Both the position numbers and the translations under genes were made by a program. The notes under the pieces were generated by a model. The model was not told where the DNA came from. It did no database searches and saw nothing but the letters and a program-made list of their open reading frames with translations. Shown one piece after another: positions 15,910-58,400 of a stretch of 64,000 bases of DNA. Each line of letters opens with the position of its first letter. Position 1 is the first letter of the stretch. This stretch comes from Lama guanicoe (Eukaryota), in assembly GCA_013239625.1 (NCBI GenBank), contig MU053557.1, positions 5,157,842-5,221,841 of the forward strand, written 5' to 3'.

Positions 15910-16083
15910 GGTGGGGGGTCCGGGGAGGAGCAACTGTGCGCTGACTTTCCGGAGCTCGACCTCTCCCAGCTGGACGCCAGCGACTTTGACTCTGCTACCT
16001 GCTTTGAGGAGCTGCAGTGGTGCCCGGAGAACTCTGAGATTGAACCCAGCCAGTACAGCCCCGACGACTCGGAGCTCTTCCAG
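15910..16083 (+). CDS. PPARGC1B: PPARGC1B exon 2 (acidic activation domain)
   Basis: Boundaries ctcctcag|GGT...CAG|gtacgt, 174 bp. Encodes [58 protein letters not shown], recognisable as the PGC-1beta N-terminus. Confidence 0.97.
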
Positions 16084-22346: not shown

Positions 22347-22562
22347 ATAATCGACAGTGAGAATGAGGCCCTCCTGGCAGCGCTCACGAAGACCCTGGAT
22401 GACATCCCCGAAGATGACGTGGGTCTGGCCGCCTTCCCAGGCCTGGATGATGGAGACGCACCTTCCTGCACTTCTGCTTCTCCTACCCCTTCACCTGCGC
22501 CCCCCAGCCCCTCCCTGGAGAGGCCCCTCGCCCCAGCCCCTGAGGTGGACGAGCTCTCGCTG
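22347..22562 (+). CDS. PPARGC1B: PPARGC1B exon 3
   Basis: Boundaries ttcaag|ATA...CTG|gtaaga, 216 bp. Encodes [31 protein letters not shown]...PEVDELSL. Confidence 0.94.
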
Positions 22563-25820: not shown

Positions 25821-25937
25821 CTGCAGAAACTCCTCCTCGCCACGTCGTACCCAACCTCAGCCTCCGACACCCAGAAGGAAGGGACCATCTGGCGCCAGGC
25901 AAGCCTCAGGTCCAAAAGTCAGCGGCCTTGTGTCAAG
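25821..25937 (+). CDS. PPARGC1B: PPARGC1B exon 4 (LXXLL box LQKLL; frame-preserving 117 bp)
   Basis: Boundaries cccacag|CTG...AAG|gtattt. Encodes [39 protein letters not shown]. Confidence 0.96.
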
Positions 25938-27691: not shown

Positions 27692-28411
27692 ATGGACAGC
27701 ACCCAAGACAAGAAGACCCCCACGCCACAGTCTCAGAGCCGGAGCTGCTCAGAACTGCATAAGCACCTCACCTCGGTGCCATCCTGTCTCCGGGCTAAAG
27801 CCCGCTCCCCAGATCGAGGTCTGCGGCCATCACTACCCCTGAGTCCTCGGCTTCCTGCCAAAGAGGATGAGGAGGTGGGCGAAGACTGCTTGAGCCCCCA
27901 GCTGGCTCCAGCCTCTCCCAGGGACTCCGCAGCACTAGGCAAGGCAGGCCTCGGCACCCAGGTTTCCCAGGAGGACATGCAGGCCATGGTGCAGCTCATT
28001 CGCTACATGCACACCTACTGCCTCCCCCAGAGGAAGCTGCCCACACAGGCCCCAGAGCCAGCCCCCCAGCCCTGCAGCAGCCCCTCCAAGCAGGTCAGAC
28101 CCCGGCCTCGGCCCCAGTACCCTTCCAAAGCCACCTGGGCTGAGTTCTCTATCCTGAGGGAACTTCTGGCTCAGGATGTCCTCTGTGATGTCAGCAAACC
28201 CTACCGCCTGGCCACACCTGTCTATGCCTCCCTCACCCCCCGGCCACGGCCCAGGCCCAAAGACAGCCAGGCCTCCCCAGGCCACCCGTCCCCTGTGGAG
28301 GAGGTGAGGGTCTCGGCTTCTCCCAAGAGCTCGGGGCCCAGACCCAGCTTGCGCCCGCTGCGGCTGGAAGTAAAAGGGCACGTCGGCCGGTCGGCCAGGC
28401 TGCAGCCAGAG

Positions 28412-28446
<35 letters not shown>

Positions 28447-28817
28447 AGAAAAAGAGGAGGAGGAGGAGTGGGGCCGGAAAAGGCTAGGCCGAGGCCTGCC
28501 GTGGACCAAGCTGGGGAAGAAGCAGGAGAGCTCTGTGTGCCCTGTGCGGCGTTCAAGGAGACTGAACCCTGAGCTGGGACCCTGGCTCACGTTCACCGAT
28601 GAGCCGCTGGTCCCTGAGGAGCCCCGAGGGGCTCTGCCCTCACTGTGTCTGGCTCCCAAGGACGTGGACAGGGAGCTGGGCAGCCCCACGGATGAGGACA
28701 GTGGCCAAGACCAGCAGCTTCTACGGGGACCCCAGATCCCAGCTCTGGAGAGCCCCTGTGAGAGCGGGTGTGGGGACACGGATGAGGACCCCAGCTGCCT
28801 GCGGATCCCTTCCAGAG
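27692..28817 (+). CDS. PPARGC1B: PPARGC1B exon 5 (LRELL box, poly-Glu tract)
   Basis: Boundaries ctctccag|ATG...AGA G|gtagtc, 1126 bp, inside the 446-aa ORF. Contains [39 protein letters not shown], a poly-E run and [10 protein letters not shown]. Confidence 0.96.
28409..28468 (+). repeat. Coding GAG/GAA repeat (poly-Glu)
   Basis: Encodes [20 protein letters not shown] in exon 5. Confidence 0.9.
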
Positions 28818-29663: not shown

Positions 29664-29700
29664 ACTCTCCCCGGTGCCTCATGCTGGCCTTGTCACAAAG
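29664..29700 (+). CDS. PPARGC1B: PPARGC1B exon 6 (37 bp)
   Basis: Long pyrimidine tract, then ttttcag|AC TCT CCC CGG TGC CTC ATG CTG GCC TTG TCA CAA AG|gtagct = DSPRCLMLALSQ. Phases match the neighbouring exons. Confidence 0.94.
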
Positions 29701-30170: not shown

Positions 30171-30244
30171 CCCCACCGGTGACCCCCCTTTTGGCAAGAA
30201 GAGTTTCGAGCAGACCTTGACGGTGGAGCTCTGTGGCACGGCAG
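30171..30244 (+). CDS. PPARGC1B: PPARGC1B exon 7 (74 bp)
   Basis: Boundaries tccctag|C CCC ACC GGT GAC...GCA G|gtgagc = (S)PTGDPPFGKKSFEQTLTVELCGTA. Phase-consistent. Confidence 0.9.
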
Positions 30245-31395: not shown

Positions 31396-32197
31396 GACTC
31401 ACGCCACCCACCACGCCTCCATACAAGCCCACAGAGGAGGACCCCTTCAAGCCGGACATCAAGCACAGCCCAGGCAAAGACATAGCTCCCAGCCGCCTCG
31501 CCCCAGAGGGCCTCCAGCTTGGGGCCATCACAGGGGCTGCCCACAAGCTGCCAAAGAAGCATCCAGAGCGGAGCGAGCTCCTGTCCCACCTGCAGCATGC
31601 CACAGCCCAGCCAGCCTCCCAGGCTGGTCAGAAGCGCCCCTTCTCCTGTTCCTTTGGAGACCACGACTACTGCCAGGTGCTCAAGCCAGAAGGCGCCCTG
31701 CAGAGGAAGGTGCTGAGGTCCTGGGAGCCGTCTGGGGTCCACCTTGAGGATTGGCCCCAGCGAGGTGCCCCACGGGCTGAAGCACAGGCCTCTGACAGGG
31801 TGGAAGACAGAAGCTGTGACGTCGGTGCCCCCAGCAGGGACAGTACGCTGCTGAGAGACCACGAGATCCGCGCCAGCCTCACCAAGCACTTTGGGCTCCT
31901 GGAGATAGCCTTGGAGGACGAAGACTTGGCCTCCTGCAAGAGCCCCGAATATGACACTGTCTTTGAGGACAGCAGTAGCAGCAGTGGCGAGAGCAGCTTC
32001 CTCCTGGAGGAAGAGGACGACGAGGAGGAGGATGACGACGAAGAAGAGGACTCAGGGGTCAGTCCCCCTCGCTCTGACCACTGCCCCTACCAGAGCCCAC
32101 CAAGCAAGGCCAGTCAGCAGCTCTGTTCCCGCAGCCGCTCCAGCTCCGGCTCCTCATCCTGCCGCTCCCGGTCACCAGCCACAAGGAGGACCTTCAG
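31396..32197 (+). CDS. PPARGC1B: PPARGC1B exon 8 (GLTPPTTPP motif, DHDY HCF-1-binding motif, acidic and Ser-rich tracts)
   Basis: Boundaries gggtag|GA CTC ACG CCA...TTC AG|gtatag, 802 bp. DHDY codons at 31659-31670. Includes [16 protein letters not shown] and [10 protein letters not shown]. Confidence 0.96.
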
Positions 32198-35174: not shown

Positions 35175-35250
35175 ATGTGGGAGCAGAGGGTCGTGTTCAG
35201 ACGGAATGCCAAGCGTCCGGCACGCCAGGAAGCGGCGGGAAAAGGCCATT
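35175..35250 (+). CDS. PPARGC1B: PPARGC1B exon 9
   Basis: Boundaries ctgacag|A TGT...ATT|gtaagt, 76 bp. Encodes (R)[25 protein letters not shown]. Confidence 0.95.
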
Positions 35251-37342: not shown

Positions 37343-37464
37343 GGCGAAGGCCGCGTGGTATACGTTCAAAATCTCTCCAGCGACATGAGCTCCCACGAGC
37401 TGAAGAGACGCTTCGAAGTGTTTGGCGAGATTGTGGAGTGCCAGGTGCTGACGAGAAGCAAGAG
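37343..37464 (+). CDS. PPARGC1B: PPARGC1B exon 10 (RRM N-half, RNP2)
   Basis: Boundaries gggcag|GGC...AAG AG|gtgagt, 122 bp. Encodes [40 protein letters not shown]. Confidence 0.96.
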
Positions 37465-38892: not shown

Positions 38893-40065
38893 AATTACTA
38901 CACAAATAGAACTGTTTTAAGTTCTGTGCCGTCTTCAGGATGTCAAGTGAAGTTAGCATGTAAAAACAAAGCAAGCAAATTAATCTCTAAGGAGAATAGT
39001 CAATCTGTTAAAATTTTTAAAGTATGCATGAGCCTCAGACATATAAAGAGGCAGAAGGGTTCCAACTTTAGTCAGAGAGGTGTCAGCAAAGGTGATTCAT
39101 TTGAATGTTTCTTAGTCCCCCACTGTTGGTAAGCTGGTCCTGAGTGCTGAGAAGTCCACATTGTCTCTGTCCTGGAGGAGTCTCCGTAGCAGACAGAACT
39201 GTTTGTGGAACTGATGAGTCAAGGGTAGAACTGACTTTAGGTCCTCCCCACCTTGGCATCCTTCTCAGGCAGGCTTCCCTCATGAGAGCAAAGTGGCTGC
39301 CTCGAGCTCTAAGCTTACCTTCTACCCGGAGAAGCAGAAGTCTCCCTCACGATTCCAGCAAAGACCTGGGATGAAGTCTTTGGGGTTCTACTTTGGTTCA
39401 CGGGCTCATTCTTGATCAAATCACTGTGGCCAAGAGGGCTCCTGTCGTGTGCCTTACCCTGGTGCCCGGAGCCTGGCTAAGCATGGGGCGCCGTCGTCAG
39501 GGGAGGGGAAGTGGATGCTGAGCAGGCAGACACGACGCGCATCCCCCTTGAAGGATGACTGCACAGCAACACGGGGGAAGGTGAAGGCCACGGTAGCCGC
39601 CAAGGAAGTGGTGGCTGAGGCTGGGTTTGAAGGGTGTGGGCGGGGTAATGGGGGCGTAGGCACGGCGAATCCCAGAGTATGGGCGTCATAAGGGAGACTG
39701 ATTGGAGTTTGAAGAGCATCAGTTTCGAGGCAGGAGGCCCAAGTTTGCATCCCCGCTCTGCCACTCGCCCTTGGGCAAATTCTGAACTCACAGCCATGCC
39801 ACCTCACCCCCAAGAGGGAAGTGACAGCCCCCACTGACAGCGGTCTGAAGAGTGTCACGGGTGGTGGCCAGCAGCTGGCAAACATTCTGTAAATCGCGGG
39901 CTCTTAATATTATTCCATGTCCGAGGCCGTCTCTACGGGGGCCCCGTGACACAACGACGGAACCATCGGAACCATCGTGGCTTCCCGCTCCTCCCCTGTT
40001 AACCGGTGGTCCGACGGCGTCCACCAGGCGGGCCCAGTAACGTGCCCCGTGTCCTCTCCCCGCAG

Positions 40066-40220
40066 AGGCGGCAAGTGCGGCTTCATCACCTACCGGTGTT
40101 CCGAGCACGCCGCCCTCTCCCTGCGGGACGGCGCCGCCCTGCGGACGCGCGGCGAGCCCTCCTTCCAGCTGAGCTGCGGGGCGCTCCCGCACTTCTGCTG
40201 GCCCCGCCCCGCCGACTACG
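40066..40220 (+). CDS. PPARGC1B: PPARGC1B exon 11 (RRM C-half, RNP1)
   Basis: Boundaries cccgcag|A GGC...TAC G|gtgagt, 155 bp. Encodes [52 protein letters not shown]. Confidence 0.95.
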
Positions 40221-41150
40221 GTGAGTACGCGGGCCCCGCCACCGCCCAGTGAGACCCAGAGCCTGGGGGCGGTGACCCCCTCTGGACACAGCTGCCACGT
40301 GCTGATGGGTGTAACCTGGCAGCCACTTGGCCTGGAGGCTGCCACCTTGTCTTTCCTCTGGCCTCTGGTCCTCCTTGTCCTGTGCCAGGACTGGTACCGA
40401 AGACAGGAGGCCTCTCGTGGCCTCTTGGACGGCCCCATCTTGGGTTCACAGCCAGGTGGCAGAACCATGTCTCCTGTCTCTTTGACCTCACAGGGCCGGT
40501 AGCTGCCCTGCCCCCTTGAGGGGCACTCCTTGGTGGCCCGGACAGGCAACAGCCTTGTCCATTAATGGGCCACAGTGAAACAATATTGTCACCATGCCCT
40601 CGCCATCTGGGGACAAGTTGGTGAAGAAGAACAAAGGACAATTTAGGAGAGAATTCTTCGTAGGGAAGAGTCTGATGCAGCCTCCATTGCACAGGGCTGA
40701 TTGTCAGGCGACCCAGGAGGCTTCCAGGCCAGGCTCCACCTGACTGCATGTCTACTGTGGGGACCCGGTTCCACAGCTGTACGTTGAGGGTGTTGTAGTT
40801 CCGTTGGCTGCCTTATGTGAACTCCACAGTGGTTTCCTGATCGGTAGGAAGCTTTGGGGCAGTAGAATTTGAGGGTCTCGGAGCTGGAAAGGAGCTCTGG
40901 GGCTGGGGTGAGAGTCTAGCTCAGGCCTCCCCACCCTACAAGCAGAGCAGCCGAGGCCCTGAGACACTGATTACATGGCAGGGCTGTCCCCACAGGATGG
41001 CCCAGCCAATGCTCACTGTCCAGTGCTCCCTGAGGCCTCGGGCCATATCCACTCTGTGGGGCTGACCCTGATGGCAGATTTTCTGGTCAGCTGGGCTTTC
41101 TCAGGTGCTCACTGCCTTCCCCTCTCACTGACTCCTCCACCCCCGCCCAG

Positions 41151-41251
41151 ATTCTAATTCAGAAGAGGCCCTGCCTGCGTCAGTGAAAACCAAGTATGAA
41201 GCCATGGATTTTGACAGCTTACTGAAGGAGGCCCAGCAGAGCCTGCACTGA
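41151..41251 (+). CDS. PPARGC1B: PPARGC1B exon 12 coding part (C-terminal [10 protein letters not shown] motif), stop TGA
   Basis: Boundary cgcccag|AT TCT...CAC TGA, followed by TAA. Encodes [33 protein letters not shown]. Confidence 0.97.
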
Positions 41252-44200
41252 TAACAGCCTTAACCTTCGAGGAATACCTCAATACCTCAGACAAGGCCCT
41301 TCCAATATGTTTACGTTTTCAAAGAAATTAAGTATATGAGAAGGAGAGAGAGCGCGCGTGAGAGAGAGAAAGAGAGAGACTCGGAACTGCTGTCCTTTTT
41401 AAAAAAAAAAAATCAATGTTTACATTGAACAAAGCTGCTTCTGTCTGTGAGTTTCCATGGTGTTGACGTTCCACTGCCACATTAGTGTCCTCGCTTCCGA
41501 CGGGTTGTCCTGGCTGGGCTCCAGACGCGGGGTCCGTCACCCACCTCCCCTTCCTCCCCGACCGACGTCCCCTCGTAGACGTGCAGCTGTGTTCACCATA
41601 ACATTTCTTGTCTGTAGTGTGTGATGATGAAATTGTTACTCGTGAATAGAATCAGGATTATAAACTCATTTCTAGTTGAAGAAAAAAAAAGTATATCTTT
41701 AAAATAACGTATTTATGGCTCAGATGTACTGTACCTGGGATTATTGTGTCGCTTCCTTGGTTTTTTAACTATGCACTGTCGTGAGGTGTTTGCCACTGAG
41801 CTGCACTGCTCCCTTTGCCAGAGTGCCCCAGAGGTGCTGGGTAGCCGGAAGGCTGGTGGCCGAGGAGGCGCGGCGTGCAGCCACGACCAGGAGCAGTGCA
41901 GAGAGGTTTCCTGCCTCTTCTGCCAAGCCCTGCCTTGTCTGTCCCAGAGCAAGTTTGGGTCCATTTCTAATCAGAGCCCTTATCTGGTGCCCAGCTCAAA
42001 CTTTAGAGTTTATGCCTGGCCGTTCATGTTTAGATGCTCTCGGACCTTGGAAGGAAGGTGTATTATTCCTGTTTTCCAGGCGAGGCAGAGAGTACCCCAA
42101 GAGGCAGTGACTTGCCCAAGGTCCCACGGCCAGTGAGACTACAGAGCAGCAGTCCAGCCCAGGCTTCCTGACTCCTGGTCCCATTCTCCTGCAGTACCTG
42201 GGGTCACGAGGCGAAGTTGTAGGGACCGGTAGTGGTGGGTTCAGCTAAAATGGACAACAGGCTAGACGCGTATGGGCTCATTTGGGGGGTAAGTCAACAG
42301 CTGACTTTACCAGCATTGGGTGAGTTCAGGCTCTGGCACCAGTCTTGACCCAAGGGATCATGTGATTTGCCTACACCTCTGGACACACCATCAGAGCTTC
42401 AGTGACACACCTGGAGTGACATGGAGAGGTGATCTGGGAGCAGTCATCCTTTTTGGGCCAGCCATCAACCCATCCCTACTCCCTCATCTTGACTTCCCTT
42501 TTCCTCACCTATAAAGCTGTTTTGGTGGCATGCGGCAGGGGGGCAGGAAGTGGGTGTGAGAGATGGGGATGGATAAGACAATCTCCAAGCTCCTTTCTGA
42601 CTTAGAAAACATTCTCATTGGGCTTTACTTTAACATTGTGATCTTGACTGATGTCAAAGCCACGTCCAGCTTGGATGTTCTGCGGGTGCCTTGAGGGCCA
42701 TTCATGAGGGAGAGCATGGCCAGGCAGGGTAAGAGCACACTGCTTCTGCTTCAGACAGAGCAGCTCCAACTTGATCTCTTTCACACATCAGGGTTCCTTG
42801 GGAAATTTTTGTATTTAAGAGAAAAGAAAGGGAAAGGAAAGAAAAAAGGTTCTGCTGCTTTAAAAAAAAAGTTTGAACTTGACTCATTAAACAGGCTGAT
42901 TTAATATATTAATGCCAGGCCTACTTCTTTGAGAATTGGTAGTTATGGTTTTTTTGAGGGGTTTCTTTTTCTTTTTTCTTTTTTTTTTTATTTTTTTGTC
43001 TTTTAAAGATTATCAAATACCTCAGCAGGTTAACTGGGCTGATGAACCTCTCCTGAGAGGTAAGCATACTCCAAGCCCATGGAGAAGGCTGGAGGAGACA
43101 GGCATTACAGGCATTAGAAGGAACAGGGAATTTGAGCTCCTATGTTTCAAGTTATTTGCCCTCTCTGGGCCCCAATTTTCTTTTCTGTGAAATGGACTGT
43201 GGGGGAGAATTAGGCGAGCTAATCTCTAAGGTCCCTGCCAGCTCTGATAGTCTTAGCTTCTGCTGAGATGGTATCTAGCTCAAGATGGCAAATACGTGGC
43301 ACATATTCCACTTCTCCCACATCCTTGGCCAGTGGCAGGCATAACCAATCGATCACAGCACTCATGTTCTTTGAGTTTGCTCATGCTATTACAATCCTCA
43401 ACACAGTGCTCTGAGCAGCCATTAGTAATTGATTAGAGTTTGACACCCTGGTCTAATCTTTGAAAGGTTTCTGTCATACAGAACCAAATGGTGTCTGGGT
43501 TTCATTCTGGCCCATCCCCTGTCTATCATGTCCTGATCTATGAGGAAAAAGTTGCCCTAAAGCCATTGCTTGGCACAGGACTCCCAATACTGCTGTGACA
43601 CACAGTCCCACTTGGGGGTGGGGGCCAAGTGGAAGAGTGGACATGAACATGCCTGGCAAAGGCAGGGCTTATAAGGATGGACCAAAAAGGGGACTTTCCA
43701 CAGCGCAGACCTGAACATTCTAAATTCCTTTTATAGCTATTCACTGCCTAGCACATTGTAGGCACACAATAAGTGGTTATGGAATTGAATGGCATGGAAT
43801 AGAATTTAAATCCATCTGATGCCTCCCCTAAGTCCTGATTTGCACCAAGTAAACTGAGAGTTCATCCTGTGGAAACCAATAGGAAAGCACTCTACATTCA
43901 GAATCTGGAGAGCTGGTTGAGTCCTGGCTCCGCCAAGAACTAACTCTGTGACTTTGGTAAGTCACAGAGTCCCTCCCTCTCCCGGAGCCTCGGTGTGCTA
44001 GAAGGCGTTGGACTAGATGGTCTCTAAACCCTCCTATTTGCTTCTTCCTTGATTGCACTAGGGCAGAGATTCACCCAGGGGCAGATGGTACTTTACAGTA
44101 AAGAAATGCAGGCTTTTAGTAAAGATGGGTCTCTCTCTCTTGGGTCAGCTGAAGCTCCCCTTCCAGTTCACATAAGTACAGGGCACATAAAAGTAGTTAG

Positions 44201-51325: not shown

Positions 51326-51744
51326 CTGTTGTTGGAATCAGACAGGAAGGAGAACACACCAGGTGAGAGGAGGCTGCAGTGGGTTTGTTTGTTTCCCTCT
51401 GACCTGCTTTGGACCAAGAATTGCAAACCTAAAGGCTTTCAGAGGCCCTGTGTCCTCCACTTTATGATTGGAGTCTGTCCTACCCTGGTTGGGGGCAGCC
51501 GGGGAATCACTGCCGGGAGCCTCAGTCTTGGGAACCAGGCTCGGCCACTACTAACTGTGTGACTTGGCCATGATGCTTCACCTCTGGGAGCCCCAGTGGC
51601 CTCACTTGTAGAACAGGGGCAATACCAGGTCACGGGCAGGCCTGAACGGGCCCACGTGTGGGAGGCTGTGCGGCCCCGCCAGGCACGCGGTGAGCGCTCA
51701 GTATGTGTGGGGTCGGGGCTCCCCGTCTCCACCCTTCCACAAAC

Positions 51745-51892
51745 CTTGTTTGGGTGCCTGGTCTTTCTCCTTCTCCCCCTGCAGCTCCTTGATCTTGGCC
51801 TCGTACTCATCAGCAAGTGCTTTCCATTCCTTGCGGTTGTTGGTGATCCCATCCAGCATGGGAGTGATCTCCTCGTGGAAGCGGGAGAATTC
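51745..51892 (-). CDS. PDE6A: PDE6A exon 21
   Basis: Minus strand ctttcag|GAA...CAA G|gtttgt = [49 protein letters not shown], 148 bp. Confidence 0.95.
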
Positions 51893-55432: not shown

Positions 55433-58400
55433 TCACCATTGTGAGGAGAAGGGGTCACTTTCCCATTGCATCTGGAGGTCAGTCTGCGAAGTCAGAGGTT
55501 TAAATCCTGTCTGTCAATCACCAGGAGTTTGACATCGAGCAATTAAACCAGCCTCCCTAGGCCTCAGTTTCCTTGTCTGTAATAATAATAGTACCTTCCT
55601 CGTGGAATGGGTGCAAGATCGAATGAGACAGTGTGTAAAAATCTTAGCATAGTGCCTGGACATACTTAGTGCATAGTAAACATTGGAGATTATCACAAAT
55701 ACTGCATTTTTATTACATGCCACACACTGTTCTAGGACTTTATAAACATCGATTTCATTTAAATCTCATCATATCCTCAGAGTTCCTTCTCTCTTGTCTA
55801 GTATAGAACAATGTTTCTCAACCTTTTTCTCATCATCCCCCCTCCTCCACTGTCAAAGAGCCTTTTTAGATATGTTTTTCTATAATTGCTCCACCATGAA
55901 ATTTTAGTGACACAGAAAAACTGTGTATCTGTTTGGAGGGCCACAGTCCAGCGAAATATCTGAGATTTTTTGCTCTTCTCCCAAGTACCACTGTTTGCCC
56001 CACTGGGCAATGCCTGATGCAGGGGAGAAGGATAACCCCAGTCGTTCTGAGGAAACTTGCATTACGAAGTAGAGGAAGGGACTGGGGAAAGAAAGGATCA
56101 AAAGAGGAACTCTTATTAAAAGGTTTCACAATAATAGGAAGGTAAGACAGGTATATTATTACACAGGTAAGGACAGTATTAGGCAGAAAGCGAGGGGACG
56201 TGGACAAAGAATGGAGCAAGAGGGGAGAATCTGAGAAGGTGTCTCAGAGACGAGGCATGAACGTTTGCGACGGGAATCCCGGGCCACGCGGTGTGGGCGT
56301 TAAGGCCACGCTGGCGAGTGCAGCTGTGTCCAGTAGACAGCGAAGAGCTACTCGCGGTTTACGGCCGGCGTCGTGACCTCATCAGAGCTGCGCCGCTTGG
56401 CAACACGTGGAGGATGGAGCGGGAAGGAGAGGCAAGGGAGACGCCGCAGCCATCCAGGCCGGACGGCAGGCGGGCCTGACGGGCTGGGAGAGCAGGGGGC
56501 AACCCCACGAGGGACAGCCAACCCCCCTTGGTGAGATGATGGGCTGGGGCTGGGGAGGGAAGGGCTGGAGAAGGTTGGGGCTCTGAACCTAACTCGCCAC
56601 ATGGAGGATTTTACAGCTGACCAGCTGTATCTGGCGTAGGTTACATAAGCTGGTCTGGGAAGCCTTAAGAGGTATGAAATATGAACAGGTTTAATTATCT
56701 TAGATAAAGTAAACTCTCAAAAACTCATAGAATTCTTTCAGTAAATAAGCTTTTGGGAATGCCTACATCTCTTAGAAACACCTTTACACTGTGTAATAAC
56801 TTCAGAACACATGCCTGATGCTTAATGTTAAGTGTTGCAGACGTGGTATGATTACAGTCAAACAGATGAAGCCGATGAATGCTTGGCCGTGCATACAGGA
56901 GTCACTGGCTCCCTGTTACCTGGAGTGTCTGCACTTTAAGTCTGCAGGTGTGGCTTCAGGAGAGCACTGGATGTTTACCTTCCTCGGCTGCAGAGTTCTC
57001 GTGAAAATCACTCCCAGCAGTGAGGGAAACACCTAAGTGTTGTAGAGATTTTGTGTGTGTGTGCCTGGGACGTGGGTCAGGGGAGGATGACCGGGCACCA
57101 GAAAAGCCAATTCAAAGCCTCGTGCCCTAAAGACAAGGCATTGTATCCACTTCAGCACCATCCCATTCAGTGCCCTGAGGCCAAGATGCCATGCTGGGCG
57201 TGAGGTATCCAGAGGGGCCCACAAGGAGCTCATAGTCACTTAAGGAGCAAAAAAACACCTGTCACTGCAGTCGGCTTAGTGGGATGACAGAAAGAAGTAC
57301 AAAGTGCAATGGAAAAAAAAAATCCAAATGGGAGAGGAACTAGCTCAGTGCAGGGGGCTTCCAAGAGGTGACAGTGGGGTAGGGCCCTGGGGTAGGGGGG
57401 GCAGGGAGCTCTCCAGGAGGAGGGAGAAGAACGGGTATCGTGGGCAGAGATGCAGTGGAGAGTTCCTGGGGTTGCCACAGGGCAGAGAGTGGCCGTCCAG
57501 CAGGTGACCACAGGGACCATTCATCTACCCATCCTTGTATACGAATGTGTGCCAGACGCCAGGCAGGGACTGGTTCACAGCGTCCCTGCTCTCAGGGACC
57601 TTGCAGATGTGTTGGAGAGTCACACATCTATCACACAAATAAGTGTAAGTGTGTAAAGAAACAACTGCTCTGAAGGAAAGCAGTTCTATTTTAGGTGATA
57701 AGGTAACAGGAGAAACTGACCTAGGCCTGGGGGGGTCAGGGAAGTGGCCCTGGAGCTGACATCTGTGGGAAGTACAGCAGAGCACTGGTGACAAAGGGCG
57801 TGGCGAGGCACATTCCAGGCAGAGAGAACATGTACTGCAAAGGCCCCGCTGGAAGGAAGCCGGCACAGTCAAAGAGCTGCGAGGTAGGAGGAGGTCAGGG
57901 AGCAGATGAGAAAGGGGGTGAGAGGGGACCTAAGAGATGAGCAGCGCGGGCCCACGGAGCTCAGGCTGGGATGAGGGGCATCTTTACACTAAGAGCGAAA
58001 GGAAAAGCCACTGAAGAGTATGAGCAGGGAGAAGGGGTCACATTTGCATCTTACAAAAATCACTATGGCTTCAGTATGGAGGGGACAGGGAAGCCAGCCA
58101 GGAGCCCAGTGAGGAAGCCACTCAGGATCCATACAAGAGATGGAGGTGGCAGTAAAAAGAAGTGTCCAGATACACAAGGCACTTCTTAATGAAGTGAAAT
58201 TTACTTTTAAGTAGTGAAAGCAGCAGGGCTTGGGGATAGGTGAGACACGCAAAGTGAGGAAGAGAGAAGTGTCAGGATGAAGGAGAGGAAAGGACAACGT
58301 GGCTATTACACAGAAGAGAGCAAAAGTAAGTCATGACAACCTTGTACGCTGAGAAATTTGAACCTCCTCCTCCAGATCGGTGAGAGTCATCAAGAGGACA

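Follow-up and report, generated by a model that had tools for sequence, protein, structure and literature searches.

Gene content and orthology of the locus

The analysed window is a stretch of 64,000 nt of Lama guanicoe DNA (assembly GCA_013239625.1, contig MU053557.1, positions 5,157,842–5,221,841, forward strand). Exons 2–12 of the gene PPARGC1B, encoding PGC-1beta, were found on its plus strand (15910–41251): exons 2–6 are located at 15910–16083, 22347–22562, 25821–25937, 27692–28817 and 29664–29700, and exons 7–12 at 30171–30244, 31396–32197, 35175–35250, 37343–37464, 40066–40220 and 41151–41251. All exons have AG/GT ends and together form an open frame of 999 amino acids followed by a stop codon. 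A search of the genome placed exon 1 about 58 kb upstream of the window and showed that PPARGC1B is present as a single copy, with its paralogues on other contigs. Exon 6 comprises only 37 nt and is preceded by a long T-rich acceptor. The start of exon 7 at 30171 adds three residues, which are also present in several cetartiodactyl entries and absent from many others.

The gene was identified as the PPARGC1B orthologue by the best match over all exons, its single copy and the adjoining PDE6A. In a maximum-likelihood tree obtained by a quick search (41 protein rows, with 18 rows left out), the protein falls inside Cetartiodactyla with support 98 but groups with none of the suines, ruminants, hippo and whales, which points to a camelid. 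Neither the homologue searches nor the cluster members shown (10 + 10 proteins, at most 15 members per cluster) contained a camelid PPARGC1B protein, none of the 10 open reading frames of the window looked up exactly among known proteins was present, and two metagenome scans, with 167 and 46 pattern matches, yielded 0 confirmed loci of orthologous DNA.

Downstream, a coding exon at about 51650–51800 on the minus strand, which we take to belong to PDE6A, is convergent on the 3' end of PPARGC1B. The terminal residues of the rabbit PPARGC1B entry P0107 match the opposite-strand reading of this region, and the C-terminus of that entry is probably a mis-predicted gene end.

Composition of exon 11 and its flanks

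Exon 11 (40066–40220, plus strand; 155 nt with AG/GT ends) encodes strands and helix beta3-alpha2-beta4 with the following tail, i.e., the second half of the RNA-recognition motif (RRM), and its translation is the same as that quoted in the first-pass annotation. The GC content of 0.748 and the 22 CpG measured here bear out the earlier estimates of about 75% and about 22. Nowhere else in the window are there at least 20 CpG per 155 bp, the maximum being 19. Third codon positions are nearly saturated, with G or C in 50 of 51 codons of exon 11 against 696 of 948 in the remaining exons (p = 8e-6). In CpG-prone contexts the corresponding values are 26/26 and 318/508 (p = 9e-6), and in non-CpG contexts 23/24 and 362/424 (p = 0.23). 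This concentration of the GC3 excess means that hypomethylation also fits the composition of the exon.

The CpG-rich patch proposed earlier for 39440–40260 is real and turned out to be narrower. It is represented by a CpG-island-like core of 391 bp (39890–40280; GC 0.70, 46 CpG, CpG o/e 0.99 against 0.30 for the whole window) and a weak single-copy shoulder in intron 10 (39400–39700; 17 CpG, o/e 0.63). The core, in which silent and intronic changes are unpolarised, spans the last approximately 175 bp of intron 10, exon 11 and the first approximately 60 bp of intron 11, and its TpG/CpA content is below the window level. Within 464 kb, its 300-bp peak (39 CpG, o/e 1.04) ranks with the seven densest; it comes close to the promoter island of PPARGC1B, which has 46 CpG, and is shorter than the latter. 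CpG islands are delimited by a length of at least 200–500 bp, a GC content above 0.5–0.55 and a CpG o/e above 0.6–0.65; the 501 bp of 39800–40300 lie above these sequence-based thresholds (GC 0.68, o/e 0.86).

Searched against the whole genome as DNA, three pieces of the flanks and the patch at 56 kb matched nothing but themselves. When the intron flanks 39998–40066 and 40221–40290 are translated by read-through, the products still resemble the mammalian open reading frames P0065 and P0002, which argues that the GC-rich core is a rewritten orthologous intron and no insertion. The donor of exon 11 is GTGAG, and three mammalian read-through frames encode Gly-Lys, i.e., GTAA, a weak comparison drawn from protein. 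The core is a probable footprint of GC-biased gene conversion (gBGC).

Two further CpG-rich segments were observed. A single-copy patch at 56176–56475 (28 CpG per 300 bp, o/e 1.02) has no evident coding frame and probably lies in an intron of the gene that we take to be PDE6A; it may be a small island or a second trace of gBGC. The beginning of the 3' UTR (41301–41600) contains 17 CpG per 300 bp with o/e 0.93, though its GC content is only 0.49.

Flanking repeats

Intron 10 contains a remnant of a high-copy interspersed repeat (39708–39781, plus strand; 87 matches in 464 kb), named here MIR-like from its presumed family. The earlier claim that CpG enrichment extends over this remnant did not hold: the segment 39700–39890, which contains it, has background CpG content (5 CpG, o/e 0.32). 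Nor did the remnant have an excess of A/T to G/C (W→S) changes, with W→S 4/21 and G/C to A/T (S→W) 5/32, and 7 of 20 sister copies were equal or higher. A fragment of a second old repeat family (39250–39455; about 12 copies in 464 kb) lies outside the GC-rich core. It has W→S 16/67 against S→W 12/68, and none of 10 copies was equal or higher, the shift being small. Since neither repeat has a clear W→S bias, the far flank gives no support for gBGC.

Amino acid changes in exon 11 and their direction

Compared with a human PGC-1beta isoform, 11 of 51 residues of exon 11 differ (40/51 identical), in line with the about 11 of 52 estimated in the first-pass annotation; identity to human is 44–48 of 51 in 10 other laurasiatherians and 40/51 in pig. 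One of the 11 differences is an ape-specific change, hence 10 changes remain against the placental consensus. This consensus was built from 55 placental proteins, and polarity rests on proteins. Rabbit, degu, Artibeus and one Manis isoform, all with other C-termini, as well as non-placentals and redundant isoforms, were left out of the 56 rows.

In exon 11, 10 of 51 residues depart from the consensus, with six W→S changes and no S→W change among them, against 50 of 889 in the other exons, with 10 W→S and 30 S→W (p = 8.5e-4 for the difference in rate). At the amino acid level the exon 11/rest change ratio of 3.5 is the highest of 56 placental rows. Under a strict ancestral filter, in which a residue was fixed where sister groups and outgroups agree and the real codons of the window were used, 8 of 49 sites of exon 11 changed; six bases went W→S, two S→S and none S→W, and one codon is ambiguous. 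In the other exons 40 of 848 sites changed, six by W→S and 31 by S→W, exon 11 differing from them both in direction (p = 1.5e-4) and in rate (p = 0.003). The protein-polarised direction of change in exon 11 is thus 6 against 0, while the rest of the gene is S→W-biased.

The W→S excess persists after normalisation for A/T opportunity (p = 2.5e-4). Six W→S changes were seen against 0.5 expected by residue matching and 0.84 by site matching, and per A/T site they are approximately 9-fold denser than in the rest of the gene. The absence of S→W changes in exon 11 is weak evidence, only about 1.5 being expected. Five W→S codons, counted by hand, make no CpG (5/51 against at most 10/889 elsewhere, p = 8e-4), and CpG retention or loss of methylation alone is therefore insufficient. 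Together with the restriction of the polarised changes to W→S or S→S, these codons agree with GC-biased gene conversion as proposed earlier. The cell of exon 11 in the guanaco row has p = 1e-4, but the exon was picked post hoc and the value does not survive correction for the full set of 923 row x block cells.

Exon 10 (37343–37464, plus strand), encoding beta1-alpha1-beta2 and RNP2 of the same RRM, serves as an internal control. It contains two changes, both S→W, and is not accelerated. It had been described as much closer to human than exon 11; the difference is only modest, as its identity to human is 35/41, level with its peers.

The RNA-recognition motif

Loss of three tyrosines in exon 11, one of them at position 3 of RNP1, had been noted earlier and was confirmed; alignment to RRM1 of hnRNP A1 placed the first of the three at that position. 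The further claim, that the RNA-binding domain is eroded, runs against the distribution of the changes. None of the 10 changed residues is at a near-invariant site, as against 22 of 41 unchanged sites (p = 0.003). All 10 changes are at sites variable in other mammals, and six of the new residues are present at the same site in other lineages. Of 33 other placental lineage groups, 10 have likewise exchanged the RNP1-3 tyrosine, for Cys in suines, pangolins and pika and for His in sheep, some bats and rodents; marsupials have Asp and platypus Trp at this position, and the paralogues PPARGC1A and PPRC1 retain Tyr. Among the canonical RRM aromatics, Tyr at RNP2-2 and Phe at RNP1-5 are kept; with Cys at RNP1-3, the set is incomplete.

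An RRM fold was found by Foldseek in the model of the near-consensus desman orthologue P0189 (pLDDT 70), which serves residue placement only; a first structure model with pLDDT 47 was discarded. On the desman model, beta3/RNP1 contains two of the change sites and alpha2 one; the loop behind alpha2 contains two more, the last part of beta4 one, and the tail that follows it four, of which three are in low-confidence segments. The coding part of exon 12 (41151–41251, plus strand), up to the stop codon, encodes a protein segment 100% identical to that of hippo, sheep and whales, and the CBP80-binding helix (PDB 6D0Y; PMC5959238) is intact.

The RRM score on a placental profile is the 8th lowest of 56, and mild damage to the domain is possible on this account. 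Judging from the sequence comparisons, the RRM appears mostly not eroded, and the changes appear tolerated. For PGC-1alpha, the RS domain was reported as required and sufficient for RNA binding, which the RRM together with the CBM was not (PMC10485026), and the RRM of PGC-1beta did not bind a cap analogue (PMC5959238). Natural variants of the RRM from camelids, pangolins and pig could show whether the RRM of PGC-1beta binds RNA at all.

Exon 11 in other placental lineages

In both pangolins (P0216 and P0217), exon 11 has undergone 10 W→S and 0–1 S→W changes, and three of the new residues are those of the window, namely RNP1-3 Tyr to Cys, Lys to Thr and Thr to Ala. The top three of the 923 row x block cells are exon 11 in the two pangolins and in the window. 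The pangolin exon is also gapped by about 7 residues in the loop between alpha2 and beta4. Suines share two exon 11 residues with the window. In pig (P0110), peccary (P0113) and warthog (P0203), PPARGC1B is W→S-biased gene-wide, with 123 W→S against 23 S→W changes outside exon 11, which suggests a high-recombination, perhaps subtelomeric, position of the gene.

The leaning of exon 11 persists when camelid, pangolins and suines are removed: 65 W→S changes were counted where 38.7 were expected, and 34 S→W where the expectation was 59. The block of exons 9–10, containing the other half of the RRM, ranks last among 17 blocks in its W→S share. These cross-placental counts are protein-only and consensus-polarised, and the related groups are non-independent, so that they are a lead and not a result. 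The acceleration had been regarded as lineage-specific. It is so only in degree: the guanaco ratio is the highest, but pangolins have the same burst and other placentals lean towards W→S.

Origin of the GC-rich exon

The composition of the exon, the width of the tract, the direction of the changes and the sparing of conserved sites are probably the result of an exon-local episode of gBGC, filtered by purifying selection. In this scenario a meiotic recombination hotspot would have been located over exon 11 of PPARGC1B in the camelid lineage, and mismatch repair in heteroduplexes would have favoured G/C alleles. Variants changing A/T to G/C would then have been fixed at a raised rate along a tract of approximately 400 bp, saturating the third codon positions and giving rise to the CpG-island-like patch, and non-synonymous W→S changes would have been carried along. 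Purifying selection would have let through only changes of residues that are variable in other mammals, with retention of the RRM core, the splice sites and the CBP80-binding helix, and we infer a protein that still works. Exon 11 fits, as a further case, a common and already described class of gBGC-accelerated exons. A by-product of recombination would thus have rewritten a fifth of the residues of this exon in a metabolic regulator, which calls for caution in scans for selection and convergence, as such a case tempts one to an adaptive story in camelids. The literature found contained no paper on exon 11 or on gBGC in PPARGC1B; supplements of gBGC papers could list the gene.

The gBGC reading has a broader form, put forward tentatively from the comparison of protein sequences. 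Exon 11 might be a long-lived hotspot, reused among placentals, in which independent bursts in camelids and pangolins, the strongest of all, led to the same residues with no adaptation. Such a hotspot would perhaps be PRDM9-independent and located on a small intragenic CpG island fed by gBGC itself. If true, this would provide a testable, stable intragenic hotspot yielding non-adaptive convergence.

Other causes must be weighed against exon-local gBGC. If the patch were an intragenic CpG island kept hypomethylated in the germline, such as an internal promoter or enhancer, the decay of CpG would halt and the GC content would rise by mutation, with no fixation bias. Agreement with it is found in the o/e of 0.99 and low TpG/CpA content of the core, in the island-like values of 39800–40300, and in the occurrence of the GC3 excess mainly in CpG-prone contexts. 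Hypomethylation, however, lowers the S→W rate and does not raise the W→S rate, while W→S changes in exon 11 are about 9-fold denser per A/T site and five codons gained G or C without CpG, so that this cause on its own is unlikely. It can be folded into the gBGC reading, since hypomethylated islands can cause PRDM9-independent hotspots (PMC11161765), and the CpG island and gBGC may be one process or coexist.

Relaxed constraint on a dispensable RRM, with the exon drifting, would account for rapid amino acid change. In an exon this rich in GC and CpG, drift would be expected to run mainly in the S→W direction, and no such change was seen; conserved sites were spared (0/10 against 22/41), exon 10, encoding the other half of the RRM, was not accelerated, and GC3 and the intronic core are left unexplained, which makes this cause quite improbable.

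Positive selection remodelling the camelid RRM of PGC-1beta for metabolic adaptation, convergently with pangolins, agrees with the 3.5-fold amino acid rate of exon 11 relative to the rest of the gene and with the three residues identical to pangolin changes. Selection on the protein does not predict one-way W→S change, saturation of silent sites and spill into the intron, however, and each of the convergent changes took one W→S base step at a variable site. PPARGC1B is named once in six supplement files of a selection scan in camelids, in the orthologue list. Adaptive remodelling is accordingly very improbable.

An assembly or consensus error in the GC-rich stretch has hardly any probability: the base-level accuracy of the exon does rest on the assembly, and no camelid protein was found for comparison, but the frame and splice sites are intact, an error would not spare conserved codons, and 14 of 24 listed runs (four organisms, 7 studies) hold 0.87–0.96 of 211 words sampled from 39200–41100, as do, with 0.87–0.92, the 10 runs left after removal of one organism that is a possible source. 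Six further runs, holding 0.16–0.26 of the sampled words, were not used as evidence. The run words exclude a false 391-bp core, though not errors at single bases of the exon.

Comparison with known systems

The guanaco protein shares with the C-terminal RRM and CBP80-binding motif of PGC-1beta (Cho et al. 2018, PMC5959238; PDB 6D0Y) the frame, the RNP2 aromatic, the RNP1-5 Phe and the helix, and differs from it by Gly for Glu at RNP1-1, Cys for Tyr at RNP1-3 and four changes in the tail.

The accelerated exons of Berglund, Pollard & Webster 2009 (PMC2631073), the main text of which does not mention PPARGC1B, are similar to exon 11 in being single diverged exons, W→S-biased and rich in non-synonymous changes, and in their scale of one exon plus flank; their bias has a short reach into introns, and the guanaco tract, unpolarised in its intronic parts, is similarly narrow. 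In contrast to the guanaco exon, polarised at the protein level only, they were described for human and chimpanzee with polarisation on DNA and recombination maps.

Riffis 2025 (PMC12290510) reported 29,845 gBGC episodes among approximately 70,000 exons, so that the class is common, with non-synonymous W→S changes raised approximately 7-fold in episodes. As in the guanaco, these episodes involve one exon, and GC3 approaches an equilibrium of approximately 94% (98% in the guanaco). They were defined by clustering of synonymous W→S changes per branch, whereas the guanaco exon was polarised on proteins, and the short-lived ‘punctual’ episode described there does not predict a second burst in the distant pangolins.

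Hypomethylated CpG islands were reported as PRDM9-independent hotspots in most placentals examined by Joseph et al. 2024 (PMC11161765), the species being given in a figure; camel, alpaca, Vicugna, pig and pangolin are not named in the main text. The guanaco patch, known from its nucleotide sequence, is like them in that CpG-island-like composition goes together with a gBGC signature, and in its possible reuse in several orders.
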